Assembly: GCA_024975835.1 (NCBI GenBank) | Contig: GCA_024975835.1_4840.1 | Direction: 5' to 3' (one strand) | Length of the DNA: 64,000 nt | Source of the DNA: a phage | Shown here: one piece after another, positions 7,127 through 61,310 of the stretch | Position numbering within the stretch: position 1 is the first letter of the stretch | Layout: every line of letters begins with the position of its first letter | Made by a program: the position numbers and the translations under genes | The notes under the pieces: model-generated | Told to the model about the DNA's origin: nothing | Databases searched by the model: none | Seen by the model: only the letters and a program-made list of their open reading frames with translations

Positions 7127-7133
7127 TATTTAG
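7127..7133 (-). promoter_or_regulatory. late-promoter-like CTAAATA motif
   Basis: Minus-strand CTAAATA 35 nt upstream of the ATG at 7092; same motif and spacing recur before other structural genes. Confidence 0.35.
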
Positions 7134-7142
7134 GACTAGATT

Positions 7143-7880
7143 ATGAGATACTTCGTCTACCAGATAACCAATCTTCTAAACGGTAAGATATATGTTGGTG
7201 CCCACAAAGGCGAACCGGATGATGGCTATATGGGTTCTGGTGTTATGATAACCAGAGCAATCAAGAAACATGGAGTTGAAAACTTCAGAAAGGATATTTT
7301 ATTGGAGTGTGAAACTCAGGAACAAATGTACCTAGAAGAATCCAGAATAGTAACCAAAGATTTTATAGAAAGGGAAGATACATACAATTTGACGCTGGGT
7401 GGATGTGGATCCTTCGACCACATCAATTCAGACCCAGAGGCTAGAAAGCAGGCGTCTACCAAAGCTCTGAACACATTACTCTCTAAACCAAAAGAAGAAC
7501 TGGAAAGAATTTATCGTTCAAGAGCGCTAAACGGTTCTAGAAATTTTTGGTTTGGGAAAGATCGTTCGGGAGAAAATAACCCAAGATTTGGTTGTGTTGT
7601 AGACCAGCAAACCAGGGACAAAATAAGAAATTCAAATAAGCGACTTGTTGAATTGGGGTTGGTAGATTACTCTAATTGCAAAGGGGCTGTGACGAAAGAA
7701 GGGCGCGAGAGAATATCCGAGGCCAATTCCCGAGAATTCAAATTCATCAACCCAGAAGGGCAGTTGGTGACAATTGTCAACCTGGCAAAATTTTGTAAAG
7801 AAAACGGTTTGAGCGAAGGCTCCATGGGCCACGTAAACAAGGGTCGCAATTTACAGCATAAAGGTTGGAGGAAAGCATAA
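7143..7880 (+). CDS. GIY-YIG homing endonuclease (free-standing, Seg-like)
   Basis: N-terminus YFVYQITNLLNGKIYVGAHKG...YMGSG matches the GIY-YIG signature; basic C-terminal region fits a DNA-binding domain. Confidence 0.85.
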   Translation: MRYFVYQITNLLNGKIYVGAHKGEPDDGYMGSGVMITRAIKKHGVENFRKDILLECETQEQMYLEESRIVTKDFIEREDTYNLTLGGCGSFDHINSDPEARKQASTKALNTLLSKPKEELERIYRSRALNGSRNFWFGKDRSGENNPRFGCVVDQQTRDKIRNSNKRLVELGLVDYSNCKGAVTKEGRERISEANSREFKFINPEGQLVTIVNLAKFCKENGLSEGSMGHVNKGRNLQHKGWRKA

Positions 7881-8494
7881 TGGCGCAATATCTTCAAGGG
7901 AAATATGTTCCTGTCAATCCTAAAAAGTACAAAGGCAACCCAAACAAAATCGTATTTCGATCTTCTTTGGAACTTGTGGCTTTCAAGTTTTGTGATACTA
8001 ATCCTGCGATCATTTTCTGGGAAAACGAGGAGACCGTAATCCCTTACATTTCCCCAGTAGACGGGCGCACCCATCGTTACTTCATGGACCTCAAGGTCTG
8101 GACGCGCCGTGAAGGGCAAGAGGAACTACAGGTCACCCTCATTGAGATCAAGCCCAAAGACCAGATCAAGCAGCCGAAGAAGACTCCGAACATGAAGGAG
8201 TCGACATTCAACAATGCGATGCGAACCTGGTTGGTCAACTCTGCCAAGTGGCAGGCCACCCGCGAACTGTGTGCCAAGAAGAACTGGAAGTTCATTATCT
8301 GGACCGAAGAGCATCTTGTTCCAGGTGAAGATCCGGATGTTCGTAAACAGTTTGAGCTGAAGTCGAAGAAGAAACGGGATATGGAGATGCAAGATCGCCG
8401 ACATGCCGAACGTGTCAGGGTGCTGAAGGAACAGATGCGGAAGGAGATTAAACCCGCCCCAACGGAGCGGGATGATGGACTGCTATTACCTTAA
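7880..8494 (+). CDS. hypothetical protein with PD-(D/E)XK-like motif
   Basis: Start chosen at ATG 7880 (GGAGG upstream, TAATG overlap with endonuclease stop); MDLK...IEIKPK resembles a D...E-x-K nuclease core; Lys/Arg-rich C-terminus. Confidence 0.45.
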   Translation: MAQYLQGKYVPVNPKKYKGNPNKIVFRSSLELVAFKFCDTNPAIIFWENEETVIPYISPVDGRTHRYFMDLKVWTRREGQEELQVTLIEIKPKDQIKQPKKTPNMKESTFNNAMRTWLVNSAKWQATRELCAKKNWKFIIWTEEHLVPGEDPDVRKQFELKSKKKRDMEMQDRRHAERVRVLKEQMRKEIKPAPTERDDGLLLP

Positions 8495-8703
8495 CTTCTC
8501 TTGTGGCCAGGGGCGTAACAGGTATGCCTGTCGCGCCCGATTTTCCAACCATCAGCCCGAGCCTGCCTGACACACTCACCCCAAGTCTCACCAGTGTATT
8601 GTTTGAACCCGCACTTGGGATGATGTTCTTCCCAAGCCCAACTGCATGATTTGCAGTCTGAACATTCACAATATAGATCTATGGTGTAGCCTGAAGCGAT
8701 CAT
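8491..8703 (-). CDS. hypothetical small Cys-rich protein
   Basis: 70 aa with 8 Cys (CECSDCKSC...C...C). Confidence 0.4.
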   Translation of the reverse strand: MIASGYTIDLYCECSDCKSCSWAWEEHHPKCGFKQYTGETWGECVRQARADGWKIGRDRHTCYAPGHKRS

Positions 8704-8705
8704 GA

Positions 8706-40268: not shown

Positions 40269-40300
40269 GTTAGGTTCCTCAGTGGGTTAGCCATATGGGG

Positions 40301-46893: not shown

Positions 46894-46933
46894 TCTTCAA
46901 CACCATATTCAAACTCAGGTGATGGAGATTATC

Positions 46934-48712
46934 ATGGCCACGCAAACAGTCCCTTCACTCGATGTCAGGGCTTTCGAGTATCTTATCAAGAAGCGTATGA
47001 AAGCTGATCCAACTTTCAAGGATTATGACTTTGAAGGTTCTGGTCTCAGTGCAATCGTGCGTATCTTGGCCTCGGATGCCAACTCTATCGGGTTCATGCA
47101 GAACATGCTGAATGGCGAAAGCCATCTTCACTCTGCTCAACAGCGTTCTAATGTCGGTCTTGCGGCCGGGTTCTTGTCGTACACCCCTCATAACTACCAG
47201 GCGGCGTACCTGTATGCAAACGTCACAGTCACTCCATATGACGCCAGCACGGCTCCGGACACGATTATAATGGATCGCCGCGCGATGTTCATTGGGGCGA
47301 AGGATGGCAAATCCTACAACTTCACGGTTGAACAACCTGTGAGTGCCTCTCTTGTAGACGGCTCTTACAAGTTCGAGAACATCAAACTCATACAGGGTAA
47401 CTGGCTGTACAAGTCCTATGACGTGGAAGGCAGCGCGATTTCTACCTATGTGATCCCATCTTCTTCCGTGGACATCGACCATATGGTAGTGCAGGTACAG
47501 GAATCTGAGACATCTGACGTGCGGTCTACCTTCTCACGGTATGTCAGCCCGTTCGATTTGAGCCAGTATGCGCAACTCTACTTCGTTGAGCTGGGGTTGG
47601 ACGGAATGTACACGTTCGAATTCGGTGATGGGTACATCTGCAAGCGAGTAGAAGACGGCAATGTTGTGTACCTCCAGTATCTGGAGACAGCTGGTGCGGA
47701 CGGCAATGACATCACTGCCTTGTCCTCCGCGTCTTCCATCGGGGGATTCAACCTTGTAGATGTTGAGCTGGTGTCAGAACGTTCTTCCGGCGGTGCGGAC
47801 CCAGAGAGCATTGAGGACATCAAGCGCCTTGCTCCGCTGGCTTATCAGGCAGAGGGTGCGGCGGTAGCCGAAGTCGATTATGCTGTGTTGACCGAGCGTC
47901 TGTTCTCCAACGTCTCCCGCGCCAAAGCATATGGCGGAGACACGCTCTCTCCGCCCGACTCCGGATACGTTTACATTGCTGTGGTGCCTTCTGTTGGTGA
48001 GACGCTCTCGGACGCCGAGAAGGCAGATATCGTGGCGACGTTGGACAAGTACAATGTGGGTACGATCACACCCAAGATTGTCGACGCTGAACTGACTTAT
48101 GTTGATGTCACCACCCGCGTGTTCTGGGATCCGACTTCCACGTCCTATACCGAAGAGCAGTTGAAGACAGTCGTGAAGAACGGTGTTGTCAACTGGGGCT
48201 TGGGGAACCTAGAAGGATTCGACGAACTGTTCGATAAAGAGCAGTTACAGTCGGCCATCACCGACATGGACAGATCGATAGTGTCAAACATCACTTCTGT
48301 GAAGTATAAGCGCCATTTCAAGCCAGACTATGGGGTACTGGACAGCTTCACATTCGATTTTGGGCGCTCGATTGCGTCTGGTTCTGTGCGTATCAGTGGG
48401 TTTAAGCCGCTTCCGGCCGAGGTCGAATTCACTTACTACATACGCGACGTCAGTGGTGTCCTGAATATGTACAAGGTGAGTACAACAGACACGACCAAGG
48501 AATATCTGGTACAAGCTGTTGGAACGGTTGATTATGTGAATGGCGTTGTTGAACTCCAGCGTATCATAGTATCCAACTACAACACTGAGGGTGTGACAAT
48601 AATTGTGTCTCCAGACGGTCTTGACCAGAACATTCAGGCCACACAGAATCAGGTGCTCCGCATCGGTGCTGTAACTGTGGAGCCGGAGGTGCGTTATGTC
48701 CAAAGATCTTAA
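46934..48712 (+). CDS. baseplate wedge protein (Baseplate-J / T4 gp6-like, tentative)
   Basis: Start at MATQTV (GGAG 6 nt upstream); about 590 aa, first gene of the late plus-strand module. Confidence 0.5.
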   Translation: MATQTVPSLDVRAFEYLIKKRMKADPTFKDYDFEGSGLSAIVRILASDANSIGFMQNMLNGESHLHSAQQRSNVGLAAGFLSYTPHNYQAAYLYANVTVTPYDASTAPDTIIMDRRAMFIGAKDGKSYNFTVEQPVSASLVDGSYKFENIKLIQGNWLYKSYDVEGSAISTYVIPSSSVDIDHMVVQVQESETSDVRSTFSRYVSPFDLSQYAQLYFVELGLDGMYTFEFGDGYICKRVEDGNVVYLQYLETAGADGNDITALSSASSIGGFNLVDVELVSERSSGGADPESIEDIKRLAPLAYQAEGAAVAEVDYAVLTERLFSNVSRAKAYGGDTLSPPDSGYVYIAVVPSVGETLSDAEKADIVATLDKYNVGTITPKIVDAELTYVDVTTRVFWDPTSTSYTEEQLKTVVKNGVVNWGLGNLEGFDELFDKEQLQSAITDMDRSIVSNITSVKYKRHFKPDYGVLDSFTFDFGRSIASGSVRISGFKPLPAEVEFTYYIRDVSGVLNMYKVSTTDTTKEYLVQAVGTVDYVNGVVELQRIIVSNYNTEGVTIIVSPDGLDQNIQATQNQVLRIGAVTVEPEVRYVQRS

Positions 48713-50751: not shown

Positions 50752-50758
50752 CTAAATA
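50752..50758 (+). promoter_or_regulatory. late-promoter-like CTAAATA motif
   Basis: ACTAAATACCCC 38 nt upstream of the ATG at 50796. Confidence 0.4.
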
Positions 50759-50795
50759 CCCCTAGATGAAACGAACACATTTAGGGGTATTTGAA

Positions 50796-53700
50796 ATGGC
50801 TAATAAACCAACACAGCCTGTTTTCCCTCTCGGTCTGGTGGCTGAAGAGCAGTCTACTTTGGCTGGTGTCGTCAACACGGGTACGATTGAGCATGGACCA
50901 GATGCTGTCCTGACTTTACCCGAGGGTAATGCCAGCGCAGGACTCCCGTCTTCCGTTCGCTACAATGCCGACTCCGACGAATTTGAGGGCTTCTATGAAA
51001 ATGGTGGATGGTTGCCGCTGGGTGGCGGTGGTATCCGCTGGGAAGTCCTTCCGCATGCCTCTACGGCAACGCTCACTGAAGGGCGAGGCTATCTCATTAA
51101 TAATACCACAGGGGCATCTACAGTGGTTCTCCCTTCCCCTACGCGTGTTGGGGATTCTGTTACTATTTGCGACGCTTATGGGAAATTTGCCACTTACCCA
51201 TTGACTGTGTCTCCTTCTGGAAATAATTTGTATGGCTCCACTGAAGACATGGCTATAACAACTGATAACGTATCAGCAACGTTCACTTGGTCTGGACCTG
51301 AACAAGGTTGGATTATTACATCCGGCGTCGGTCTTGGCCAAGGTCGTGTCTACAGTCGTGAAATCTTTACAAAAATTTTGGCGTCTGAGACAAGTTCTGT
51401 CACTCTCAATACTCCACCAACAATCGTGGACGTGTATGCTGATGGAAAACGTCTTGCGGAATCCAAATATTCACTAGATGGGAATGTAATCACTTTCAGT
51501 CCTTCTTTGCCAGCCAGCACAGAACTTCAGGTGATTGAATATACTCCTATTCAATTGGGTATTGGGGATGGTTCTGGCTCTTCCACGATTACCTGGGTCT
51601 ATAATGGGGGTTCAGCGATTGGTGGTGAAACCGAAATCACGTTGGACGTCGTTGTTGATGATGTTCCGGCCATTGATATAAACGGAAGTCGCCAGTATAA
51701 AAATCTGGGGTTCACATTCGATCCATTAACCAGTAAAATCACTCTTGCGCAAGAACTGGAACCAGAGGATGAAGTTGTTGTAATTATCAATGGAACACCA
51801 AACATCTATAATCAAATTGATCATACTTTGCGGGAAGTTGCTCGCGCAACCAATGTTAAAGATACAGAGGTCGTTTATTTTAGTGTTGGTGCTGCGTTAA
51901 GTGGGTATAAAGTTATTTATGACAAGGAGACGCAAAGGGCTTATCCCTTGCCTGCTGATATTGCCCCTGGTACTACTGCTGTCAGTCTTAGTTCTTCCGC
52001 TGTACTTGTGCATTCAGCGGGTTCTGTAGACCTCGGGGAATTGGCTGTTACTCGTGAAGAGTACGTCACATTGTCCGGAACATTTGATACTGGTGTAACA
52101 GTTAATACCAAGAATGAACTGGTTGTTTTTACTGATGGTAAGTACCGTTGGGATGGGGTGTTGCCTAAAGAAGTTTCTGCTGGCTCAACTCCAGAGACTG
52201 CTGGTGGTGTAGGTGCGGGAAAATGGTTGAGTGTTGGTGATGTATCATTGAGAGCCGACTTACTGTCAGGTGGCATGACTGATTTAATTGGATTTCCTGG
52301 GTACAACAATCTTACAGCATTCTTGCATACCACTGTTCGTACAGTAGAAGAGTTCAGAAGTGACGGACTAACTGACGCACAGGTATTCCAAGCGGCAATC
52401 AATGCAGGTAACGTGCGTGTGCCAGCAGGTAGCGTTATTAACATCACAGGGAATATTGATATCACTATCCCAGCCAATCGTTTAATTGTTGTAGATGACG
52501 GAGGTATATTACGCTCTAACGGTCGTTTTACAGCTTACGGCGTAAACGATGTTCATTGGGTAATTAACGGACTAGTTGAAAGCACTGGCATGGTTGCGGC
52601 CCCGGCAAAATCTGGATGGCCCAATACAGCAGAAGGCACTCAAGCGGGAGATGAGCGTGGGTTTATTGAGTTTGGTGGTGTTGTATTCGCCGGTAACGAT
52701 GGGAAGAATTATTCTGTAACTGGTTCAGGGCACATTCAGGGTCCATGGTCTGGAACTCCTAACGTTTCAGATTTAGCCAATCAGTTAAATAAAAAGGGTA
52801 TTGCTGCGTGGAACTGCTCAGGATTCACTGTTGAAGGCGTTAGTATCGACGGCTTTGAAGGTGAGCAAGTGTATTGGTTTGCTCGCAACGCAGACAACAG
52901 AGACGCAATTTTCAATAGAGTAAAAAGTACCAATGCACGTTTTAACGCCCTGAACATGAACGTGTACAGCGCAACAAAAAATATTCGTGTGATCGATTGT
53001 TACACCAATAATTCGTACAACGGAATTGAATCATCTGCTGGTGATATCATTAACACAATCCATGACAATCCGGTTAACACAGGTATTCTGTTTGGTTCAG
53101 GTACTGGTGGTGGCAACCGATTAATTGAAGGCAATCAGGTGAACGAATGCCTCGGAACACCTTATTCACTACTTTATAATAAGGACTATGAAAGTCGTGG
53201 GTATGTACCTAACGTTACAGTGGTAAACAACACCGCAACAAACCCCGGCGTTCACTTCATCGCCATCTCAGGCATCACTGGATTCAAAGTCGCCAACAAT
53301 ACATGTTACGGGCTTAAAACAGGTAGATTTATTCAGGCCACCGTTTTACAAGGCGGTATTATAGAAAATAATACTAACTACAAACCATCACCAGGGACAG
53401 AGCACGTCTATCGTGGCGAATGTTATAGCGTAGAAGAGCATAATAACGCGCGTGTACTTTTAGGCGGTTCGTATGTTACTGCCGCCGCGTCAGACCACGC
53501 CATAACCGGGGGGAATTCAAGCGCTATAACGACATTCGGCAATCGTGAAAACTTCAAGGATTTACGTGCTGACAGTCCAGCAATCGGAACTGGCGCAGAA
53601 CTTAGATACTCTGTTGATATAGGCGCCGCATTTACTCCTGTATCGTTAAGTATGCAACTGACCACATATGGGGGTTCAGGCGCTCAAGCTGACTGGTCTA

Positions 53701-54275
53701 TCAATAACCTAAAGATAAATCCTAATGATGTACTTGGGCAGTCATGGGTGTCTCGACATACAGGACATTGGGAACCTGGGACTGATGGTATACAAAATTT
53801 CGGGTCACCAACGCGCCGTGTTAACAACAGCTATTTCACGGTAGCGCCTACTGTAACGTCTAATGAAATGGCTAAAACTGCGCTGTTAGATCTATCTGAA
53901 GCAGAACGTAACGCGGCATTAGAAATTAAAGATAACATTCGCAAGTATAAGCTATTAGATGCTATCGCTATTAAAGGGGAGGATGGTGCCCGTTGGCACT
54001 TCGGTGTGGGTGCACAAACGGTAGGCGATATAATGAGAAAACATGGACTTAATCCTGCTGACTATGGGTTTTGGTGTCACGATACATGGGAAGACCAATA
54101 CACGGATGTAATGAAAAAAATTTATACCGGAAATACCGTTGTAAATGAGGAAGGACTTTCAGTTCCTGAATACACATTAGAACCAACAGGTGAAAGGATG
54201 CTTGTTAGGACCGCCGGAGAAAACTACGGCATTCGTTATGATGAATTGTCTATGTTTATATTAAGTGCAATATAA
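50796..54275 (+). CDS. tailspike protein 1 (beta-helix depolymerase-like, C-terminal chaperone-like domain)
   Basis: Start at MANKPTQ (AGGGG upstream); conserved anchor module around residues 350-480; pectate-lyase-like repeats in the middle; C-terminal GARWHFG...GIRYDE domain shared with tailspike 2. Confidence 0.65.
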   Translation: MANKPTQPVFPLGLVAEEQSTLAGVVNTGTIEHGPDAVLTLPEGNASAGLPSSVRYNADSDEFEGFYENGGWLPLGGGGIRWEVLPHASTATLTEGRGYLINNTTGASTVVLPSPTRVGDSVTICDAYGKFATYPLTVSPSGNNLYGSTEDMAITTDNVSATFTWSGPEQGWIITSGVGLGQGRVYSREIFTKILASETSSVTLNTPPTIVDVYADGKRLAESKYSLDGNVITFSPSLPASTELQVIEYTPIQLGIGDGSGSSTITWVYNGGSAIGGETEITLDVVVDDVPAIDINGSRQYKNLGFTFDPLTSKITLAQELEPEDEVVVIINGTPNIYNQIDHTLREVARATNVKDTEVVYFSVGAALSGYKVIYDKETQRAYPLPADIAPGTTAVSLSSSAVLVHSAGSVDLGELAVTREEYVTLSGTFDTGVTVNTKNELVVFTDGKYRWDGVLPKEVSAGSTPETAGGVGAGKWLSVGDVSLRADLLSGGMTDLIGFPGYNNLTAFLHTTVRTVEEFRSDGLTDAQVFQAAINAGNVRVPAGSVINITGNIDITIPANRLIVVDDGGILRSNGRFTAYGVNDVHWVINGLVESTGMVAAPAKSGWPNTAEGTQAGDERGFIEFGGVVFAGNDGKNYSVTGSGHIQGPWSGTPNVSDLANQLNKKGIAAWNCSGFTVEGVSIDGFEGEQVYWFARNADNRDAIFNRVKSTNARFNALNMNVYSATKNIRVIDCYTNNSYNGIESSAGDIINTIHDNPVNTGILFGSGTGGGNRLIEGNQVNECLGTPYSLLYNKDYESRGYVPNVTVVNNTATNPGVHFIAISGITGFKVANNTCYGLKTGRFIQATVLQGGIIENNTNYKPSPGTEHVYRGECYSVEEHNNARVLLGGSYVTAAASDHAITGGNSSAITTFGNRENFKDLRADSPAIGTGAELRYSVDIGAAFTPVSLSMQLTTYGGSGAQADWSINNLKINPNDVLGQSWVSRHTGHWEPGTDGIQNFGSPTRRVNNSYFTVAPTVTSNEMAKTALLDLSEAERNAALEIKDNIRKYKLLDAIAIKGEDGARWHFGVGAQTVGDIMRKHGLNPADYGFWCHDTWEDQYTDVMKKIYTGNTVVNEEGLSVPEYTLEPTGERMLVRTAGENYGIRYDELSMFILSAI

Positions 54276-54281
54276 CAAAAA

Positions 54282-54306
54282 CCCCGCTTTGGCGGGGTTC
54301 TTATTA
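54282..54306 (+). terminator. intrinsic terminator
   Basis: CCCCGC-TTTG-GCGGGG hairpin followed by TTCTTATTAT. Confidence 0.7.
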
Positions 54307-54310
54307 TACC

Positions 54311-54374
54311 TTTGTTCATAAATTTATTAGTTCAGACTAAATACCCTATATTGGCAAATCCTTTATGGGGTATT
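54311..54374 (+). repeat. 64-bp direct repeat, copy 1 (promoter/leader cassette)
   Basis: Identical except one base to 56971..57034; contains CTAAATACCC and the RBS/start context of tailspike 2. Confidence 0.7.
54337..54343 (+). promoter_or_regulatory. late-promoter-like CTAAATA motif
   Basis: 35 nt upstream of the ATG at 54378. Confidence 0.4.
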
Positions 54375-54377
54375 ATC

Positions 54378-56696
54378 ATGATTTCTCAATTCAATCAACC
54401 ACGCGGCTCCGCTTCCATAGAAGTTAACAAACAATCTATCGCTCGAAATTTCGGTGTCAAAGAAGACGAAGTCGTTTATTTCACTGCTGGTATTGATCTC
54501 AGTGGATTTAAAGTAATTTATGATGAGACCACCCAACGGGCTTATTCTCTCCCTTCCGGTATTGTTTCAGGGACAACTGCAATTAGTCTGGACGAACGAG
54601 CTATCCTCACTCATTCCGCTGGTTCTGTTGATCTAGGGGAACTTGCCGTAGCCAGAGAAGAATATGTAACCTTACCTGGTTCATTTGATACCGGTGTAAC
54701 CGTCAATGCTAAGAATGAATTGGTTGTCTTTACCGACGGCAAGTACCGTTGGGATGGGGAGATTCCCAAAATAGTACCTGTCAACACAACCCCTAAAGAT
54801 ACTGGGGGTGTTGGTCTAGGGGCATGGTTAAGAGTCGGCGATGCATCTTTGCGTTCTGAAGTTTACTCAAATATGGCTTGGGTTTCTCCTGAAATGTACG
54901 GTGCACTTGAAACGGAATCTGATGCGGATACTCAAGCTGTTATAGATGCGTTTATTACCGCGAAGACAATGGGGCTGGCTGTGAAGCTGTCCAGAATATA
55001 TAAGTGTGATCAAAACATATCAGTAGCTAATTTTTACGGAGATATTTTTGGCGTAAGTATGGCCACATGCGGAATAAAATTTGCTGCTGGATATGGTCTT
55101 ATCATTGATAACTCTGGGACCACAGTAGTACGCAAACCTGTAGGTCTTTGTAATTTCACCATTAAAGCCACTGGTAAACGACAAGGCACTGCTCTAGAGT
55201 TTCTAGGTACTGGTGGAATAGCTTATGCACGACAACTTATTGTAAGAGATTTAGATGTATCAAATGATGCTGGAACCCCTACCTCTTTTGATGTAGTATT
55301 CAAGTTAAACCGTGCAGGTCAATGTGTATTTGATGGGGTGAATGTCGCTGGCGGTGGCACAAGCGACCCCAACGCTCGCATGGGCAAAATATTCGACCTG
55401 TACTCAACAAAGAATATCAATGTTGTCAACGGTTCTTATCAGAACTTCGACACCTTCATGTACGCGCATGACGATACCGAAGGTGTTGTGGTTTTCGGTA
55501 ACCACATCATCGCAGGTCGTCGTGGTGTTGTCTCAGAAAACAATGTTGGCAACTTGTTCCAGGTAACGAACAACCACTTCAACACATCGTTGAGTGCTGT
55601 AGAGTTGGGCGATCTGTCTAACAACGGTGGGAACCATAGCATAATCACCGACAACTTCTGTATGGTATGGAATGGGATTCCTGAAGATGATACTACGCCA
55701 TATATCGGGTTCAAGTCCTGTGCCATGTACGGAACCTATAGTGATAATGAGGTGCTTCTGTCTGGTTTCACTAAAGACGTTACTCACACCTTGTTTACTT
55801 CTAATGCCACAGGGACCAGAACGGCACAATACAATATAGTAAGCAACCCAAGAGTTAATAATTGTACCAGAGGCATTCATATGCTGGCTGGCACCCAATC
55901 GAACCATGTGAGCAACGTCCAGCGCGTAGGCGTAACACTGGCAAATGCCATCATAGATGAAGGGGCAAACAACAGGTCATGGATGTTTGATGTAGATAAT
56001 AATGCATTTATGACCAGAAACATAAAATTGTGCACTCCAGGTTCAGCCGTTGCGCAGCAAATTCGTTTTTACTCCGCTACTGATGCAAATACACCAAGCG
56101 CCATTCTCCGAGTATCTGGAGGCGTTGCCGGTGTTGGCGGGGATGGGACGGCAGAGCTTACTGCTGGTACTACCGTCTTTAAAAACATTAGACCGTCAGC
56201 TGCAAACACTTATAGCTGCGGATCTAGCGGTGCACCGTGGTCTGGCGGGTTCACACAAACTGCATTCACCGTGACATCTGATGCTGATTACAAATCAGAT
56301 CCACTGCTGATGACTGATGATATTCTTGATGCAGCAGAAGAGGTACAACTTGTCCAGTATCAATATCTCGACAGGATTGAAGAAAAAGGAGCTGACGGTG
56401 CCCGCTGGCACTTCGGAGCCATTGCACAACGGTATGTAGAGGCATTTGAAAGACACGGGCTTGATGCTCATCGCTTTGGGTTCATCTGTTATGATGAATG
56501 GGGTGATGCTCCTGCTGTCATAGATGAAGATACTGGCGAAGTGATCACGCCAGCTATTGAGGCAGGATCAAGATACGGCATTCGTTATGAAGAAATGCTG
56601 GTAATGGAAGCAGCGCTGCAACGCAGAAACTATGCGCGGCTACTTGATAAATACGAAACACTTGAGGCTCGTATTAGCTCATTAGAGAATAAATAA
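54378..56696 (+). CDS. tailspike protein 2 (with C-terminal chaperone-like domain)
   Basis: Start at MISQFN; N-terminal anchor module nearly co-linear with that of tailspikes 1 and 4; C-terminal domain homologous to that of tailspike 1. Confidence 0.6.
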   Translation: MISQFNQPRGSASIEVNKQSIARNFGVKEDEVVYFTAGIDLSGFKVIYDETTQRAYSLPSGIVSGTTAISLDERAILTHSAGSVDLGELAVAREEYVTLPGSFDTGVTVNAKNELVVFTDGKYRWDGEIPKIVPVNTTPKDTGGVGLGAWLRVGDASLRSEVYSNMAWVSPEMYGALETESDADTQAVIDAFITAKTMGLAVKLSRIYKCDQNISVANFYGDIFGVSMATCGIKFAAGYGLIIDNSGTTVVRKPVGLCNFTIKATGKRQGTALEFLGTGGIAYARQLIVRDLDVSNDAGTPTSFDVVFKLNRAGQCVFDGVNVAGGGTSDPNARMGKIFDLYSTKNINVVNGSYQNFDTFMYAHDDTEGVVVFGNHIIAGRRGVVSENNVGNLFQVTNNHFNTSLSAVELGDLSNNGGNHSIITDNFCMVWNGIPEDDTTPYIGFKSCAMYGTYSDNEVLLSGFTKDVTHTLFTSNATGTRTAQYNIVSNPRVNNCTRGIHMLAGTQSNHVSNVQRVGVTLANAIIDEGANNRSWMFDVDNNAFMTRNIKLCTPGSAVAQQIRFYSATDANTPSAILRVSGGVAGVGGDGTAELTAGTTVFKNIRPSAANTYSCGSSGAPWSGGFTQTAFTVTSDADYKSDPLLMTDDILDAAEEVQLVQYQYLDRIEEKGADGARWHFGAIAQRYVEAFERHGLDAHRFGFICYDEWGDAPAVIDEDTGEVITPAIEAGSRYGIRYEEMLVMEAALQRRNYARLLDKYETLEARISSLENK

Positions 56697-56784
56697 AAAT
56701 CCTACTCTCCTGAGAGTACTATGTATATGCATTCGTTATTTACGGTTGTAAACTATAGTAATTACATTAACAATCCAATAGGTA

Positions 56785-56810
56785 AGCCCCAGCATATGGG
56801 CTTTTTGTTG
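56785..56810 (+). terminator. putative intrinsic terminator
   Basis: AGCCC-CAGCATAT-GGGCT hairpin followed by TTTTGTTG. Confidence 0.55.
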
Positions 56811-56941
56811 TACCCCAAACAATCCTTTATGTAGACTGTTTTAGTCAATTACGACTTAACTAACCTGAGAAAGTCCCTATGGGAAATGAACCAGATAACG
56901 TAACTCTAGCGAGAGACTGAGAAACATTTCGAAAACCAAAA

Positions 56942-56966
56942 CCCCGCTTCGGTGGGGTTTCTCTTA
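56942..56966 (+). terminator. intrinsic terminator (second, in tandem)
   Basis: CCCCGC-TTCG-GTGGGG hairpin followed by TTTCTCTT; near-copy of the 54282 terminator. Confidence 0.65.
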
Positions 56967-56970
56967 TACA

Positions 56971-57034
56971 TTTGTTCATAAATTTATTAGTTCAGACTAA
57001 ATACCCCATATTGGCAAATCCTTTATGGGGTATT
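56971..57034 (+). repeat. 64-bp direct repeat, copy 2 (promoter/leader cassette)
   Basis: 63 of 64 identical to 54311..54374. Confidence 0.7.
56997..57003 (+). promoter_or_regulatory. late-promoter-like CTAAATA motif
   Basis: 37 nt upstream of the ATG at 57040. Confidence 0.4.
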
Positions 57035-57039
57035 TTCAA

Positions 57040-59103
57040 ATGACCAGAAACGTCGAGAGCATCTTTGGAGCGGTCGTAACAGCTCCACACCAGATTCCAT
57101 ACACTTACACAGCAACTGGCGGAGAGAAGTTTATCTCCCTCCCTTTCTACCCTGTCACTGGAGTAGTCACAGTCAACGGTAGTATGCAAGTTCCGTTAGA
57201 CAACTTCGAGATAGACGGGAATACGTTAAACCTTGGGCGCGCATTATCCAAAGGCGATGTTGTGTTCTGTCTGTTTGATAAGATTCTTTCGCCAGAAGAT
57301 TATAAAACCGGGATTCGAATCTATAAGTTTCAGGCTGTAGGAGGTGAAACTGAGTTCACTCCTGATTTCACATCTTATGGAGTCCAATCTCTTTATATCG
57401 GTGGTGAGTACAAAACACCCGAAATTGAATATTCCTATAACAGCACGACAGGGAAAGTGTCTTTGCAAACTGCACTGACTGCAGGCGTTTGGGTTGTGGC
57501 TGAAATGTCTGCTAAACAACCGAATATCGGTCCGTTGTTTGACCGAAGTATTCAAGAAATCGCTCGTGCAGCTAACGTAAAAGACTCTGAAGTAATCCTT
57601 AGTACAGATAGTACCCAGTTCCTGAATGACAAGAAGATTGTTTATTCTGTTAGTGAACAGAAGGCTTATGGGTTACCAGTATTACCTACTAACGTATTCA
57701 TTCAGTCTGTGGATAATGGCAAGTTAACTTACTCCCCAGGTAACATTGCTGTAGACCTGGTTCCTGTTCCTGGCTCTGCTGAGTCACTTACTGCTTCGGA
57801 TGTTCCAACTACTTCTGGGGATTCCGTACAGGATGGGTTAGATAGTATTGATGTATTTATTGATACTGACTCATATAAGAGAGTTGGGGATATTCGCGGT
57901 TATACAACCACGCAGGATGTAACTCCTGTTAACGCAATTATTGCAGCAAATCAAGATGTTGGTATTATTCGGCTACCTAAGGGTAACTGGACTGGTAACT
58001 TTGCTCTGCTAAATAAAACTAGTTTAGATGGCACTTCACTTGCTACTACAACGTTAACTGTTCCAATTAATACAGCAGGTATTAAACCCTCCGGTACTGA
58101 TGTACGTGGTATTAACATTAGTAACATTGCTATGCAGGTGGTGGGTGCTGTGTCTGGTGGGGCACCAATTGGTACAGGTATTGGTCTGGATATGACTGGC
58201 TGTACTAAGATGGTTAACTGTACTATTTCTAATATCTATAGTGATTTCTTTGATATTGGTTTCAAAGCTGGCCCTGCTGATTTCTCTAACGTTTACAATA
58301 ACATTCGCTGTAATAACAACCGTATTGGTTTTGATATTTCTAGTAACGGGCAGATTATTGAGAATACCTGGAACAGCCCATATGCTGCTAACTGGACCCA
58401 GATTGGTATGAAGATTAGTGGTGTTGGTGGTCAGGTAATCAATGCACCAAACTTTGGGCATAATGGCACCGCTGGCGCTTACTTCATGCACATTGACACC
58501 AACTCCCGTGGAGTGATTATTAATGGTGCTAACTTCGAAATGGATGCTGTAGGTGGTAAACTTTCTGCTGGTAGCCAAGCAGTAATTGTAGCTTCTGACT
58601 CAGCAGTTACTTTTAATGCCCCTGTATTCAATAAGGTTGGTGCTGCTGGCCCTAATACCTATCTTTTTCGTATCCGTGGTACATGTGTAGTACATATTAA
58701 CAATCCGCAGATTTACAATGATGATGGGATTGTTGGACACTTACGTATTGAAGATACTGCTACTGTATATCTGAATGACCCTAAAGGCGTTATTACGGTA
58801 ATTTCTGTGGCAGCAGGTGCTAAGTTGATTCGTGTACATGAAAAACTGGCTAATGCACCTAGTTATACGGCTGTTCAATCAGTTCAGTCTGGTACAGTTG
58901 TAAACGTTGGTTTCTATCCTACGTATGCTATAGGTGTACCGGATTTCCATGCCAGCGCACTACCAGCTACATTTAAGTATGCCGTTACCTTTGATACGTA
59001 TAACTCTACCCATGGAACTATGGTAGCTAGGGTTTACGATACTACTACCGGGTTGTATGTTACTTCAGTATCTGTTCCCACATTCATTCAAGCATGGCGT
59101 TAG
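57040..59103 (+). CDS. tailspike protein 3
   Basis: Start at MTRNVES (track's upstream Met lies inside the repeat); shorter, divergent anchor region (IQEIARAANVKDSEV); Gly/Asn-rich beta-helix-like body. Confidence 0.6.
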   Translation: MTRNVESIFGAVVTAPHQIPYTYTATGGEKFISLPFYPVTGVVTVNGSMQVPLDNFEIDGNTLNLGRALSKGDVVFCLFDKILSPEDYKTGIRIYKFQAVGGETEFTPDFTSYGVQSLYIGGEYKTPEIEYSYNSTTGKVSLQTALTAGVWVVAEMSAKQPNIGPLFDRSIQEIARAANVKDSEVILSTDSTQFLNDKKIVYSVSEQKAYGLPVLPTNVFIQSVDNGKLTYSPGNIAVDLVPVPGSAESLTASDVPTTSGDSVQDGLDSIDVFIDTDSYKRVGDIRGYTTTQDVTPVNAIIAANQDVGIIRLPKGNWTGNFALLNKTSLDGTSLATTTLTVPINTAGIKPSGTDVRGINISNIAMQVVGAVSGGAPIGTGIGLDMTGCTKMVNCTISNIYSDFFDIGFKAGPADFSNVYNNIRCNNNRIGFDISSNGQIIENTWNSPYAANWTQIGMKISGVGGQVINAPNFGHNGTAGAYFMHIDTNSRGVIINGANFEMDAVGGKLSAGSQAVIVASDSAVTFNAPVFNKVGAAGPNTYLFRIRGTCVVHINNPQIYNDDGIVGHLRIEDTATVYLNDPKGVITVISVAAGAKLIRVHEKLANAPSYTAVQSVQSGTVVNVGFYPTYAIGVPDFHASALPATFKYAVTFDTYNSTHGTMVARVYDTTTGLYVTSVSVPTFIQAWR

Positions 59104-59109
59104 TAACTG

Positions 59110-59140
59110 CCCCCCCCTTCTCTCCTGGGAGGGGGGTTTC
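59110..59140 (+). terminator. putative terminator hairpin
   Basis: CCCCCCC...GGGGGG stem followed by TTTCC; loop unusually long. Confidence 0.5.
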
Positions 59141-59162
59141 CTAGAAAAACAAAGAGGTTTAT

Positions 59163-61241
59163 ATGAACGAAATGTTCTCACAAGGTGGTAAGGGTTCAAC
59201 TGGAATCTTAACCAACAAACAAGCAGTAGCTCGTCACTTTGGGGTTAAACAATCTGAGGTTGTTTACTTCTCAGTGGGTGCTGTACTAAGCGGTTATAAA
59301 GTTATCTATGACAAAGTGTCACAGCGTGCTTATTCCTTACCTGCCGACATTGGTTCAGGGGTTACTGCTGTAAGCCTTAGTCCTGCTGGGGTATTAGTTC
59401 ACTCTGACGGTAATGTTGACTTGGGTGCACTAGCCGTTACCCGCGAAGAGTATGTAACCCTACCTGGCTCATTTACTACAGGCGTTACTGTTAATAGTAA
59501 AAATGAACTTGTTGTGAGTGTTGGTGTTAAATACCGTTGGGATGGTTCTCTACCTAAAGTAGTTCCTCCTGATTCTACTCCATTAAGCACTGGGGGAGTT
59601 GGCCCAGGGGCATGGATAGTAGAAGGTGTTGCTGGGTTGGAGCAACGTTTGGCTTCCTGGGAAGGTTCATCCATTATTGACTCTGGTAATCTGTCCCTTT
59701 ACAAAAAGAGTGGTGTATTTGGTGATGGTGGGGAAGTAACTGATAAGCAACAGGTTATTAAGCATACAGATGGATTTTGGTACAAGTATACTGGAACCCT
59801 GCCCGTTAGCTATGGCTCTGCCCCAGACTCTTCCTGGACTAATGTTGGTAAGTTAACCGGGTTTAATGAACACTCACCTGAGAACTTTGGGGCAATCCCG
59901 AACGATGCCAGCTTTGACTGTCTACCTGCTATAAAATTAGCTATAGCTACAGGCACATTAAACCTGGATGGTAATTCTACCTACCACGTAACTGATGAGG
60001 TTATCATACCCTCACATCTACGTGGGAATTTGAATGGGGCAACAATCAAAGCAATCGGTCCTACCTGGCCTGTATTAAAATCTGTTGTTCGTGTTAGTAA
60101 ATTTCCTATTGGAACCCCAACCGTTGATGTAGCTAATACTGAGAACCAGGTACGAGGGCTACGTTTAATTGGTAGTTTGAACATAGACTGTGCAGATATT
60201 GCATCGTATGGTTTTTACGCACGACTAATGTGTGCAGAATCCGAGATGGGTAGTATCTATTCTTACAATGCTAATAAGTATGGCATTGTAATGTTCGCTT
60301 GCTGGTATTTTCAGATGGGCGTGCTTCATGCAAACAATTGTGCAAGGGGGATGGCTTTAGGTTACTCAACAGAAGGGGAGCAGGGCGATACTTACGTAAA
60401 CGCAACATACTTCCCACACATTAGTGCATGGGGTACTGATAAGTCTACGGGGCTAGGCTATGACCCAATCACCGACGATGCAAGTAAGTACACAATAGGT
60501 GCTGGTATTATTCTAGGCCGTGGTTTGTCCACTAGTGTTGGTGTGCTGTGCTCTGAGAATACATCCGGTGCTGGTGTGGTAACAATGGACCCTGCTGCGT
60601 GGGATATTGGAGTTATGTACTGTGAGGGCAACAGTAAAGACTTCACTCAGGAGGGTGAGCCGAAGGTATCATTGTTGTCATCTAAGGCTAACAGCGAGAG
60701 TCATACACTTACCATCTCTACACTTCACCTATCTGCTGGTTGTGGCATTTTAACCAGAAGTAAACAAGAACGGGTGTTGATCAGAAGTCTTTACCGTTTT
60801 GATAATTCAAAAACCTTCCACTCTTACTGCACAGAAGATACAATAGAGATTGGTAGTAGCAACTACTATGTACTTAATGGTCATAATTACAATGCACCTG
60901 CTGCACTTATTAAAGAACCTCTCAATGTGGATTTTGTGCGATCAGGGCTGACCTTGAGTGAGTGGACACCTACCGTTATTGGTTACTTTCCTGGCAGCAC
61001 GTCAGAACAACAGCTTTATGTTAAGCTGCCTGTAAGCCCTAGTGGGCTAGATCTACAGATTGCTAGTGAAGATGGTACAGAATACATCACTGTAACTGGC
61101 ACAGATTTTAAAGCCTCTTTAACCAAGAAAAGGCTGCCCAGTAAGGTGTATGAGATAAAGATTGGGTCTGTCTCAACAGTAGCTGTTACTGATTGCTCCA
61201 TTTTAATCAGAAGTAAAAAAGGAGATTGGTACTACTGGTAA
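59163..61241 (+). CDS. tailspike protein 4
   Basis: N-terminal module (VARHFGVKQSEVVYFSVGAVLSGYKVIYDK...KYRWDGSLPK) highly similar to tailspikes 1 and 2; distinct C-terminal body. Confidence 0.6.
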   Translation: MNEMFSQGGKGSTGILTNKQAVARHFGVKQSEVVYFSVGAVLSGYKVIYDKVSQRAYSLPADIGSGVTAVSLSPAGVLVHSDGNVDLGALAVTREEYVTLPGSFTTGVTVNSKNELVVSVGVKYRWDGSLPKVVPPDSTPLSTGGVGPGAWIVEGVAGLEQRLASWEGSSIIDSGNLSLYKKSGVFGDGGEVTDKQQVIKHTDGFWYKYTGTLPVSYGSAPDSSWTNVGKLTGFNEHSPENFGAIPNDASFDCLPAIKLAIATGTLNLDGNSTYHVTDEVIIPSHLRGNLNGATIKAIGPTWPVLKSVVRVSKFPIGTPTVDVANTENQVRGLRLIGSLNIDCADIASYGFYARLMCAESEMGSIYSYNANKYGIVMFACWYFQMGVLHANNCARGMALGYSTEGEQGDTYVNATYFPHISAWGTDKSTGLGYDPITDDASKYTIGAGIILGRGLSTSVGVLCSENTSGAGVVTMDPAAWDIGVMYCEGNSKDFTQEGEPKVSLLSSKANSESHTLTISTLHLSAGCGILTRSKQERVLIRSLYRFDNSKTFHSYCTEDTIEIGSSNYYVLNGHNYNAPAALIKEPLNVDFVRSGLTLSEWTPTVIGYFPGSTSEQQLYVKLPVSPSGLDLQIASEDGTEYITVTGTDFKASLTKKRLPSKVYEIKIGSVSTVAVTDCSILIRSKKGDWYYW

Positions 61242-61252
61242 TAGATAGGAAA

Positions 61253-61280
61253 AGCCCCCAGAATTGGGGGCTTATTTCTT
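61253..61280 (+). terminator. intrinsic terminator
   Basis: AGCCCCCA-GAAT-TGGGGGCT hairpin followed by TATTTCTTTC. Confidence 0.7.
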
Positions 61281-61303
61281 TCTATTCCTCGGTTGGTTGT
61301 ATA

Positions 61304-61310
61304 CTAAATA
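61304..61310 (+). promoter_or_regulatory. late-promoter-like CTAAATA motif
   Basis: 35 nt upstream of the ATG at 61345. Confidence 0.4.

Follow-up and report, generated by a model that had tools for sequence, protein, structure and literature searches.

The heptamer CTAAATA has already been published as the late-gene promoter box of ViI-like (Ackermannviridae) phages. In the window, i.e. the whole stretch of 64,000 nucleotides of phage DNA that was analyzed (source: an Agtrevirus-like Ackermannviridae phage), its placement ahead of start codons is far from chance. We put at about 0.6 the probability that CTAAATA is a gp55-type late-promoter box combined with a hairpin that buries the Shine-Dalgarno (SD) sequence and gates RNA initiated upstream. 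The longer form of the motif, CTAAATAcCcc, reportedly originates from Adriaenssens et al. 2012, Arch Virol 157:2035. PMC7283392 cites CTAAATAcCcc as regulatory in the Ackermannviridae ('Viunalikevirus'), and the string found here is identical, including the partly conserved C-rich extension, in the same family and ahead of morphogenesis genes. The motif is already known, and the window is one more genome that contains it; neither for the cCcc extension nor for the inverted GGGGTAT was a published explanation found in the searchable literature.

Boxes in the window and their placement

Exact matching identified nine copies of CTAAATA. Eight of these, with the coordinates and strands given in the initial annotation, precede an ATG on the same strand; the ninth had been omitted from that list. 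Together with five further candidate boxes, one of which is a perfect TATAAATA, the sites are the following (all +1 positions are predicted):

7104-7110 (+), TTAAATA variant box, divergent partner of 7127-7133 in a 50-bp intergenic region, 32 nt upstream of the ATG at 7143
7127-7133 (−), CTAAATA box of the baseplate tail-tube-cap operon, which opens with gene 6124-7092 (−); ATG 34 nt away, +1 at 7121
21459-21465 (−), TTAAATA variant, candidate box, 30 nt upstream of 130-aa gene 21036-21428, no hairpin
21910-21916 (−), GTAAATA variant, candidate box, 26 nt upstream of 141-aa gene 21458-21883, no hairpin
31017-31024 (−), perfect T4-type TATAAATA box, 28 nt upstream of 55-aa gene 30821-30988 (phrog_3879), +1 at 31011
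40301-40307 (−), CTAAATACCCC box, 32 nt upstream of 152-aa gene 39810-40268, +1 at 40295
40400-40406 (−), CTAAATACCCC box ahead of the 28-codon remnant ORF 40287-40373 (−), +1 at 40394
45981-45987 (−), ATAAATA variant, candidate box, 39 nt upstream of 48-aa gene 45795-45941
46887-46893 (+), CTAAATA box of the gp6-like baseplate wedge gene 46934-48712, +1 at 46899
50752-50758 (+), CTAAATACCCC box of tailspike gene 50796-54275, +1 at 50764
54337-54343 (+), CTAAATACCCT box of tailspike gene 54378-56696, +1 at 54349
56997-57003 (+), CTAAATACCCC box of tailspike gene 57040-59103, +1 at 57009
58009-58015 (+), ninth exact CTAAATA, inside tailspike gene 57040-59103, without a start codon downstream
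61304-61310 (+), CTAAATA box of the tail-fibre gene, which begins at 61345 and extends beyond the window, +1 at 61316

The count of the bare 7-mer is only mildly above chance (9 vs. 4.6 expected; at least 9 in 3 of 100 shuffles). What is far from chance is its placement: the search relative to start codons showed upstream enrichment, with seven of the nine copies located on the coding strand within 20 to 45 nt upstream of called genes, positions that account for 1.9% of the window (binomial p = 3 × 10−11; p = 4 × 10−9 when compared with the rate for all 7-mers of equal composition). The permutations that rank next after CTAAATA are shifted versions of the same motif, and CTAAATACCCC with at most one mismatch occurs six times vs. 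0.56 expected. The copy at 58009-58015 most likely is a chance occurrence, because a single coding-sequence copy is in line with the 4.6 expected per window. The spacing, initially described as fixed at 33 to 41 nt, varies among the eight sites, from 26 to 40 nt between the end of the motif and the ATG (34, 26, 32, 40, 37, 34, 36 and 34 nt) or from 33 to 47 nt when counted from its first base. The invariant core is TAAATA, and exact matching of CTAAATA under-counts the boxes.

The description of all eight sites as starts of structural genes holds for the baseplate, tailspike and tail-fibre genes but not for 40301, where the 152-aa product matches phrog_3852 (function unknown), or for 40400, where relatives carry an intact 154-aa gene and the window copy has an internal deletion of ~395 nt. 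Gene 6124-7092 matches phrog_230 (baseplate tail tube cap), and its box is conserved in the relative PQ306799. The TTAAATA box opposite precedes a homing endonuclease gene, followed by head-closure gene 7880-8494, and a relative has the same divergent box pair ahead of the head-closure and tube-cap genes. The TTAAATA site at 21459-21465 is also found in a relative. The TATAAATA box at 31017-31024, absent from the initial annotation, precedes a gene that closes a minus-strand early-type unit, with an early-type TTCAAT-N14-TATAAT upstream (35186-35211, −) and a strong terminator (30759-30794) after the gene. The gp6 box is conserved in 19 of 19 related loci, and a late promoter has been predicted upstream of gp6 in phage AG3 (PMC3121705). 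The box at 50752 begins 9 nt past the stop codon of the upstream gene; that at 61304 is conserved in L005, L017 and PQ306799. The 54337 and 56997 copies are not independent because they lie within a duplicated 105-nt cassette (54274-54378 and 56934-57038, 91% identical).

The boxes as probable late promoters

The suggestion that CTAAATA is the late promoter of this phage is supported, indirectly, by the likeness of the box to those of T4 and Aeh1, by the late genes that it precedes, by conservation, and by the gp55, gp33 and gp45 genes of a relative. In the window, the box is located on the coding strand before baseplate, tailspike and tail-fibre genes; it is kept at orthologous positions in 19 related contigs, and even a Vibrio phage with a gp6 of only 38% identity has it ahead of late genes. 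A relative that is 96% identical has 55 TAAATA occurrences in its rebuilt genome, of which 29 are on the coding strand at most 100 nt upstream of a CDS, although 92.8% of that genome is coding, and the genes behind these boxes include sheath, scaffold, gp5, gp2, head closure and endolysin. The same relative encodes homologues of gp55 (phrog_234, 3 × 10−52) and gp45, as well as gp33 (PF16805, 8.5 × 10−18); the genes for these three proteins are not in the window itself. Across the candidate late-promoter sites, no position between −51 and −13 exceeds 0.23 bits, and A occupies the predicted +1 in 15 of 27 sites. A late promoter of the family has been used to drive a reporter. Neither for this phage nor for any family member did the searchable literature yield 5′ ends, maps of transcripts or data on expression.

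The late promoter of T4, TATAAATA (−13 to −6), is recognized by gp55 together with gp33 and the sliding clamp, gp45 (PMC2988020, PMC7892883). As noted initially, CTAAATA is one base away from this core, matching it with C at −12. The two systems share a single −10-like box without a −35 element, ahead of virion and lysis genes on either strand, as well as gp55, gp33 and gp45 homologues encoded in the lineage; a perfect TATAAATA is present at 31017-31024. They differ in that C is preferred over A at −12, where T4 gp55 flips the base into a deep pocket (for the 263-aa gp55 homologue of the relative, phmmer linked no PDB chain), and in that the segment downstream of the box, which is AT-rich in T4 (PMC2988020), is often C/T-rich here, e.g. 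CCCC. The same variant is found in the consensus of Aeromonas phage Aeh1, (a/g)CTAAATA with (a/g)C at −13/−12 (PMC2988020): A or G occupies −13 in five of the eight window sites. However, Aeh1 belongs to a different phage group, and both consensus sequences are in silico only.

Judging by these likenesses, the host core RNA polymerase with a gp55-like late sigma would read CTAAATA as a −10-like element at positions −12 to −6, assisted by gp33-like and gp45-like proteins, and would start transcription approximately 6 nt past the last A of the box, with no need of a −35 element. TAAATA appears to be strictly required and C to be preferred at −12, with the T4 box TATAAATA probably used as well.

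Predicted hairpins over the ribosome-binding site

The extra regulatory palindrome, initially put forward as a possibility, is real: it folds as an RNA-type hairpin, with z between −3.9 and −7.7 for five sites of the window and −2.2 for gp6, and a hairpin over the ribosome-binding site most likely is a better reading of it than a DNA operator. The inverted repeat assigned to several copies is GGGGTAT at 40400, 50752, 54337 and 56997 only; elsewhere the complementary arms differ or are missing. The hairpins, and the terminator-like structures in the same region, are:

30992-31020 (−), AAUAUCCUCGC / GUGAGGAUAUU, covers SD GAGGA, MFE −14.0 kcal/mol, z −5.45
40376-40402 (−), AUACCCCAUAC / GUGUGGGGUAU, 11 bp including one U.G, 5-nt loop, SD GGGG covered by the 3′ arm, MFE −17.2 kcal/mol, z −4.55, 0 of 200 shuffles equally stable
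46893-46929 (+), AUCUUCA.CACC / GGUG.UGGAGAU, SD GGAG in the 3′ arm, MFE −11.6 kcal/mol, z −2.22, stability matched by 8 of 200 shuffles
50753-50793 (+), 16-bp hairpin UAAAUACCCCUAGAUG / CAUUUAGGGGUAUUUG, covers the SD, MFE −21.0 kcal/mol, z −7.73
54340-54374 (+), AAUACCCUAUA / UAUGGGGUAUU, MFE −16.1 kcal/mol, z −3.87, sense strand 5.9 kcal/mol better than antisense
56999-57035 (+), AAAUACCCCAUA / UAUGGGGUAUUU, covers the SD, MFE −18.8 kcal/mol, z −4.88
54280-54299 (+), GC-rich hairpin resembling an intrinsic terminator, after the first tailspike gene and before the next promoter
56784-56803 and 61252-61273, similar GC-rich terminator-like hairpins

The 5′ arm is formed by the end of the box and positions −5 to about +3, and the 3′ arm by the SD and the spacer, so that CCCC would act as an anti-SD. 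When the predicted late transcripts were folded from +1, nearly all hairpin stability was gone (only −0.9 kcal/mol is left for the truncated transcript at 50753-50793). The complementarity is site-specific: for the 8 nt after TAAATA, the 20 nt ahead of their own ATG are a better pairing partner than the corresponding stretches elsewhere (permutation p = 10−3 to 10−4 in the relative and 0.002-0.003 in the window). In the relative, the predicted unpaired probability of the SD increases upon truncation to the late 5′ end (Wilcoxon p = 0.001), and z is below −3 in 5 of 26 late leaders vs. 3 of 82 control leaders.

Among hairpin-bearing orthologous sites, CCCC is kept in 63 of 64, the lone exception being CCCT, which still pairs as U.G, compared with only 9 of 17 orthologous sites without a hairpin. 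The orthologue alignments contain no double compensatory changes; the stems are simply invariant. The arms are also constrained as promoter and as SD. At the 40400 site (8 distinct orthologous sequences), the stem is invariant, the loop is variable, and one U.G changes to U-A; at 54337, the extension of the box has T in place of C, which is tolerated because it still pairs, as U.G; in the second haplotype of the gp6 hairpin, a U.G becomes C-G and two flanking pairs are broken. About two thirds of the candidate late promoters have no hairpin. The 40301 site folds into none despite its CCCC (z +0.64), and its orthologues have drifted to TCCC, GTCC or ACCC; 61304 shows only weak CUCUA/UGGAG pairing (61313-61336, z −0.73), and folding of 7127 gave no significant hairpin (z −0.39). 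The apparent palindrome at 7104/7127 was rejected as a pair of hairpin arms, as it consists of two opposed boxes.

At about a third of the promoters, the bases after the box, e.g. CCCC(A/T), TCTTC or TCCTC, are the complement of the gene's own SD, and the spacer after the SD, typically TATT, is that of the box end; RNA entering from upstream (possibly early or middle read-through, terminator leakage or a preceding late operon) would, because of this complementarity, fold into a hairpin of 9-16 bp that buries the ribosome-binding site. RNA from the gene's own late promoter would begin inside or after the 5′ arm, form no hairpin and be translated. Two points count against gating: at gp6, the nearest upstream gene is divergent and offers no clear source of read-through RNA, and at the tailspike genes, RNA from upstream would itself be late, so that the benefit of gating is not obvious.

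Alternative readings and the T4 precedent

CCCC and its inverted copy might instead act on DNA, as a discriminator-like promoter element, recognized by the gp55-like sigma or the core polymerase, or as a palindromic operator for a dimeric regulator of late genes. Such a role would fit the published family motif, which includes cCcc, the 40301 promoter, which keeps CCCC in the window without a hairpin, and the C/T preference at −4 and −3, which extends to some non-hairpin sites, so that part of cCcc may belong to the promoter. We nevertheless consider it unlikely: the arms vary by site (CCCCAUA, CCCCUAG, UCUUCA and UCCUCGC here, GCCCAUA, CCUC and ACCAGUUG in relatives), and loops of 5 to about 19 nt are a poor fit to a single operator. 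Moreover, the stems contain G.U pairs, the sense strand folds better than the antisense strand at several sites, CCCC drifts where there is no hairpin, and the complementarity is specific to each gene's own SD. Even less probable is that the hairpins are terminators or 3′-end stabilizers of the upstream genes that overlap promoter and ribosome-binding site by chance. They do lie directly 3′ of upstream genes, and several 3′ arms end in a U-rich run (GGGGUAUUUU), but the terminator scan did not report them, their loops are large, UAUCAUG without a U run follows the gp6 hairpin and only a short AUUAUC follows that at 31023, and the 3′ arm always covers the SD, which a terminator would not need. 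The promoter-SD hairpins are separate from terminators because distinct GC-rich, canonical ones lie 40-200 nt upstream (those at 54280, 56784 and 61252 above).

That the motif itself is an RNA-level signal in late leaders, e.g. for processing or for binding of a repressor of translation such as the RegA homologue, is highly improbable. In favor of this reading, the motif occurs on the coding strand within a narrow range of distances before starts, and a RegA-like repressor of translation is encoded by the relative. Against it, the box is one base from the T4 late box and the same as the Aeh1 variant, the gp55, gp33 and gp45 machinery is present in the family, divergent gene pairs have one box per strand, the predicted +1 is enriched in A, and the reporter was driven by a late promoter of the family.

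Late promoters joined to SD-burying hairpins have a precedent in T4, where translation of genes e (lysozyme), soc, 49 and I-TevI is controlled by a leader hairpin containing the late promoter (PMC3014915, section 29). There as here, the SD is paired within a helix, the 5′ strand of which contains the late promoter or comes right after it, and only late-promoter transcripts are open to ribosomes, which for the present phage is predicted from folding. Unlike in T4, the design is found at about a third of the late promoters, including three consecutive tailspikes and the gp6 wedge, and is apparently so stereotyped that the promoter consensus of the family has absorbed it. The endolysin and RuvC-like resolvase genes of the relative have the same promoter-hairpin arrangement and are predicted to be gated likewise, resembling e and 49; the small late gene 30821-30988, at the end of its early-type unit and putatively gated, resembles soc.

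Placement of CTAAATA and the genes that follow it

CTAAATA occurs nine times in the window compared with 4.6 copies expected, and at least nine copies were obtained in 3 of 100 shuffles; the bare count is weak evidence, whereas the placement of the copies is strong evidence. When the motif was searched relative to start codons, as the initial annotation had suggested, seven of the nine copies fell within the 1.9% of positions located 20–45 nt upstream of called genes (P = 3 × 10−11; P = 4 × 10−9 against 7-mers of equal composition). The next most enriched permutations of the motif are frame-shifted forms of CTAAATA itself. The eleven-base CTAAATACCCC, with at most one mismatch, is found six times in the window (0.56 expected); four copies are exact, and one is a CCCT variant. 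The ninth CTAAATA copy (58009), located within a tailspike gene, probably arose by chance.

The remaining eight copies (7127, 40301 and 40400 on the minus strand; 46887, 50752, 54337, 56997 and 61304 on the plus strand) had been reported in the initial annotation, and all were recovered by the motif search at the same coordinates and on the same strands. Each precedes a same-strand ATG, and the supposedly fixed distance is instead a range, with 26–40 nt between the end of the motif and the ATG. The start codon after 40400 opens only a 28-codon remnant, the gene following 40301 is not a recognized structural gene but encodes a 152-aa protein of unknown function, and the copies at 54337 and 56997, counted as separate, sit in a single duplicated 105-nt cassette (54274–54378 and 56934–57038, plus strand; 91% identical). 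The 28-codon open reading frame (40287–40373, minus strand) lies between two CTAAATACCCC boxes and is the frame-shifted remnant of a 154-aa gene, of which about 395 nt are deleted in the window. This gene is intact in the related contig L005 and most relatives, with a TAA stop codon that forms part of the proximal CTAAATA box.

Between 46 and 58 kb, the window shares 96% identity with genomes of Agtrevirus, in the family Ackermannviridae (Salmonella phage vB_CECAV_050, PQ306799; Escherichia phages YX22 and LHE287), compared to about 83% with Kuttervirus genomes; G+C content is about 50% in the first 50 kb and 43–45% across the tailspike region. Gene content was assigned from the PQ306799 annotation and PHROG matches, and tRNA genes with ARAGORN. 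The boxes in the window precede baseplate, tailspike, tail-fibre and head-closure genes, on either strand.

Gene content of the window
6124–7092 and downstream, minus strand: baseplate operon
Within the window: rIIA/rIIB, topoisomerase and DNA-polymerase regions
42676–43649, minus strand: four tRNA genes (Ser-GCT, Tyr-GTA, Asn-GTT, Met-CAT)
46934 to the window end, plus strand: gp6-like wedge gene, two more baseplate genes, four tailspike/tail-protein genes and a tail-fibre gene

Five tRNA genes, including Trp, are listed for PQ306799; ARAGORN did not find Trp in the window. A 240-nt segment recurs inside three tailspike/tail-protein genes (52011–52250, 54612–54851 and 59400–59639, plus strand; 65–73% identity), presumably as a common protein domain. 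The convergent genes 39214–39771 (plus strand) and 39810–40268 (minus strand) are separated by a bidirectional terminator-like hairpin at 39787–39808 (AAAGGGGCGTTAAGCCCCTTT), with T-runs on both strands.

The probable promoter box and the late-transcription machinery

In T4, late promoters consist of the 8-bp TATAAATA at −13 to −6, followed by an AT-rich segment, with no −35 element; for Aeromonas phage Aeh1, a variant with (a/g)C at −13/−12, i.e. (A/G)CTAAATA, was derived in silico (PMC2988020). The (N)CTAAATA of the window differs from the T4 box by a single mismatch at −12, where T4 has A and this phage prefers C; a perfect TATAAATA is present at 31017–31024. In T4, cryo-EM shows a flipped −12 adenine occupying a deep pocket of gp55 (PMC7892883), and C at this position offers a simple test of a shift in late-sigma specificity.

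The relative PQ306799 encodes a gp55 homologue, or late sigma (phrog_234, 3 × 10−52), a gp33 co-activator (PF16805, 8.5 × 10−18) and a gp45 clamp (phrog_223, 1 × 10−64), all mapping outside the window. The gp55 homologue has no significant phmmer match among PDB chains, the T4 gp55 structure included, and none in Pfam; its tie to the late-sigma family comes from PHROGs only. Homologues of gp55, gp33 and gp45 were noted in ViI-like phages in 2011 (PMC3184105), and in phage AG3, late promoters were predicted with one mismatch to TATAAATA, one of them upstream of gp6 (PMC3121705). The sequence cited as one of two regulatory motifs of Ackermannviridae, CTAAATAcCcc (PMC7283392), is identical to that of the window, which belongs to the same family, and an Ackermannviridae late promoter has served as NanoLuc driver in CBA120 (PMC9965104). 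Our literature search found no transcript maps or 5′-end data for any Ackermannviridae phage. Placement, late-gene targets, likeness to the T4 and Aeh1 boxes and the machinery of the relative all support the proposal of the initial annotation, and CTAAATA is very probably a late promoter. As such it is already published for Ackermannviridae: the motif is not new, and the window adds one more genome. That the box itself acts as an RNA signal is unlikely, given its likeness to the T4 and Aeh1 boxes and the late-transcription genes of the relative.

In our reconstruction of PQ306799 (151.8 kb, 191 annotated CDS, 92.8% coding), 29 of the 55 TAAATA copies stand on the coding strand of a CDS, no more than 100 nt ahead of its start; these 29 are preceded by C (13 copies), A (7), T (7) or G (2). 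The targets include the tail tube cap, head closure, gp2, gp5, endolysin, scaffold, sheath, tail fibre, tailspike, gp6 and virion structural protein genes. Across 27 of the PQ306799 sites, no −35 element was detected, with at most 0.23 bits at any position between −51 and −13. Positions −4 and −3 favour C or T (C at −4 in 16), and the predicted +1 is A in 15. Whereas the T4 downstream segment is AT-rich, the segment after the box here is not: many boxes are followed by CCCC, TCTT or CCTC. Given these TAAATA statistics, the window therefore holds candidate boxes beyond exact CTAAATA.

Candidate boxes in the window beyond exact CTAAATA
7104–7110, plus strand: TTAAATA, divergent partner of 7127–7133
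21459–21465, minus strand: TTAAATA
21910–21916, minus strand: GTAAATA
31017–31024, minus strand: perfect TATAAATA
45981–45987, minus strand: ATAAATA

With TAAATA as the core and C, A or T at −12, searches for exact CTAAATA miss real candidates. The major head, portal and tail-tube genes of PQ306799 have no TAAATA and carry CTAAGTA or CTAATTA about 30–40 nt before the ATG (L023, PQ306799 79001–103100, and L001; near 100300, 104190 and 104790 in the record); the true promoter set is therefore still more degenerate, and the middle A of the box, judging from these sequences, may be replaceable. The gp6 gene of Vibrio phage D506 likewise has CTAAGTA. Two further matches were set aside: CTAAACACCCC at 42606 (plus strand), a one-mismatch match that adjoins a tRNA and has no downstream gene, was treated as chance, and TTAAATA at 38251–38257 (minus strand), before the DNA polymerase gene, is kept in the relative but is doubtful, its target being a replication rather than a virion or lysis gene and its leader having no hairpin. 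A homing-endonuclease gene (245 aa, 7143–7880, plus strand; phrog_314, 1.5 × 10−45) lies between the divergent promoter region and the head-closure gene (7880–8494); it is absent from PQ306799, whose head-closure gene comes immediately after the promoter, and in the window it has in effect captured the late promoter-like box at 7104–7110.

Predicted hairpins joining the box region to the Shine-Dalgarno sequence

Leaders were folded from −12 to just past the ATG. Strong hairpins are predicted at five sites and a weaker one at 46887; the same folding gave no significant structure for the leaders of 40301–40307, 7127–7133 and 61304.

Predicted leader hairpins (minimum free energy, z)
31017–31024, minus strand: −14.0 kcal/mol, z = −5.45
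40400–40406, minus strand: −17.2 kcal/mol, z = −4.55
46887, plus strand: −11.6 kcal/mol, z = −2.22
50752, plus strand: −21.0 kcal/mol, z = −7.73
54337, plus strand: −16.1 kcal/mol, z = −3.87
56997, plus strand: −18.8 kcal/mol, z = −4.88

In every hairpin, the 5′ arm comprises the box tail AAAUA and the next 5–9 nt (about −9 to +3), and the 3′ arm comprises the Shine-Dalgarno and the spacer before the AUG, so that a late transcript, with +1 put six nucleotides past the box, as in T4, would begin inside or after the 5′ arm. Cutting the leaders to this +1 is predicted to cost 12–20 kcal/mol at the strong sites and to leave −0.9 to −5.9 kcal/mol. In PQ306799, the predicted unpaired probability of the Shine-Dalgarno is 0.03–0.17 in full-length hairpin leaders, and its predicted accessibility increases on cutting to the late 5′ end (Wilcoxon p = 0.001); in the same genome, z is below −3 for 5 of 26 late leaders compared with 3 of 82 control leaders. 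Hairpins with z of −7.3 and −5.0 precede the RuvC-like resolvase and endolysin genes, respectively (PQ306799 locus L022, record 43449–43492 and 54360–54395, minus strand). At gathering thresholds, Rfam recovered only the four tRNAs, and the hairpins match no family.

The arm pairs differ from gene to gene, each matching its own ribosome-binding site: CCCCAUA/UAUGGGG, CCCCUAG/CUAGGGG, AUCUUCA/UGGAGAU and UCCUCGC/GUGAGGA in the window, and GCCCAUA/UAUGGGC, CCUC/GAGG and ACCAGUUGU/ACAAUUGGU in relatives. In a permutation test, pairing of the 8 nt after TAAATA was better with the 20 nt preceding the gene's own ATG than with the corresponding 20 nt of other sites; the p value for PQ306799 was 1 × 10−3 with starts as annotated, 1 × 10−4 with two mis-set starts corrected and 5 × 10−4 with only one CCCC site retained; for the window alone it was 0.002–0.003.

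Conservation was assessed in 19 IMG/VR contigs retrieved by their gp6-like protein (78–98% identical; G+C 43–50%). In these, CTAAATA is kept at the orthologous places before gp6, the first and subsequent tailspike genes and the 152-aa gene; a further family (CTAAATAaaccagttgtt...), absent from the window, also occurs. Of 64 orthologous sites with a hairpin, 63 retain CCCC, and the sole exception, CCCT at 54337, still allows U.G pairing, whereas at the hairpin-less promoter of the 152-aa gene 8 of 17 loci have TCCC, GTCC or ACCC instead. Orthologue alignments show constant stems and variable loops; pairs change on one side only (U.G to U-A or C-G), and double compensatory changes were not seen, so that the alignments say little for or against an RNA structure. 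For TSP1, the MAFFT alignment is mis-gapped and therefore uninformative. In a Vibrio phage with a 38% identical gp6, four of five plus-strand CTAAATA copies precede late genes, and its copies carry neither the CCCC extension nor hairpins. Since the stems contain U.G pairs, the sense strand is the more stable at several sites, and CCCC is kept with the hairpin and drifts without it, these observations suggest that what constrains CCCC acts on RNA and not on DNA, through pairing and not through promoter strength.

The initial annotation had raised a possible regulatory palindrome, and a DNA operator or discriminator element would be one form of it. This reading is disfavoured: the arm sequences differ, the loops range from 5 to about 19 nt, G.U pairs occur, and the complementarity is specific to each gene. 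C/T at −4 and −3 may also contribute in part to the promoter, in keeping with the base preference at the 27 PQ306799 sites. The 'cCcc' of the published consensus probably reflects a translational hairpin and not promoter recognition. Terminator function, also disfavoured, would place transcription ends at the hairpins, but the terminator scan calls none of them, and separate canonical GC-rich terminators stand upstream. The palindrome could also mark divergent promoters, and this holds for two pairs only: 7104/7133, a special case in which two boxes stand face to face, and gp2/tail-tube in PQ306799. Elsewhere, the 3′ arms read on the other strand give no TAAATA box, and there is no opposite-strand gene.

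Proposed translational gating and the parallel with T4

In T4, the ribosome-binding sites of genes e, soc, 49 and I-TevI are hidden on long early or middle RNA by a helix, the 5′ strand of which contains the late promoter; RNA started at that promoter is devoid of this strand and is translated (PMC3014915). In the window, the Shine-Dalgarno likewise lies in a predicted stable helix at five sites, and by geometry the late promoter is likewise in or just before the 5′ strand. RNA initiated upstream would thus fold with the Shine-Dalgarno buried, whereas RNA from the gene's own late promoter would lack the 5′ strand and be open to translation. T4 gene 49 encodes a junction resolvase. Both this gene and gene e (lysozyme) are gated (PMC3014915), and the hairpin-bearing genes of PQ306799 include the endolysin and the RuvC-like Holliday-junction resolvase. 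We lean slightly towards the hairpin being a T4-style translational gate, and we put the probability of the combined reading, a CTAAATA late promoter with a hairpin gate, at about 0.6. The hairpin reading of cCcc seems to be the only undescribed part, and would be a new instance of a known control.

The pattern of T4 soc fits the window's 55-aa gene (30821–30988), which ends a minus-strand unit and has its own TATAAATA box and hairpin; the unit starts near an early-type TTCAAT-N14-TATAAT (35186–35211) and ends at a 16-bp terminator (30759–30794). TTCAAT-N14-TATAAT is the other published Ackermannviridae motif, presumably an early sigma-70-type promoter, with two exact copies in the window compared to 0.02 expected.

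Copies of TTCAAT-N14-TATAAT in the window
35186–35211, minus strand: just after the DNA polymerase gene
46605–46630, minus strand: in the 365-nt gap upstream of gp6, pointing away from it

Co-directional upstream genes permit read-in, by their order, at 31017–31024, 40400–40406 and 50752; terminators (54280 and 56784) stand between the upstream genes and 54337 and 56997, respectively, and the gene nearest upstream of 46887 is divergent. Tailspike genes follow the order terminator, promoter, hairpin, gene. Here, RNA leaking past the terminator or reading through from the operon would be silenced by the hairpin, and it is plausible that, through such gating, production of each tailspike depends on its own promoter alone. 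Tentatively, we propose that the cCcc tail is an anti-Shine-Dalgarno and not a promoter element, and that a stereotyped portable cassette (terminator, promoter, hairpin, ribosome-binding site) gates about one third of Ackermannviridae late genes, every tailspike included. If so, own-promoter-only translation could set tailspike stoichiometry, and the cassette would travel along with exchanged tailspike modules. In reporter or engineered phages (CBA120 and SPTD1 derivatives), the box with its native leader could silence cargo in a read-through context.

The 105-nt direct repeat spans the terminator, box, hairpin and ribosome-binding site before two consecutive tailspike genes, and is likely a junction for tailspike-module exchange. 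The tailspike gene at 59163–61241 has no box; the sequence upstream (59104–59162, plus strand) holds only a C7...G7 stem followed by TTTCC, and the gene is probably co-transcribed with the preceding one.
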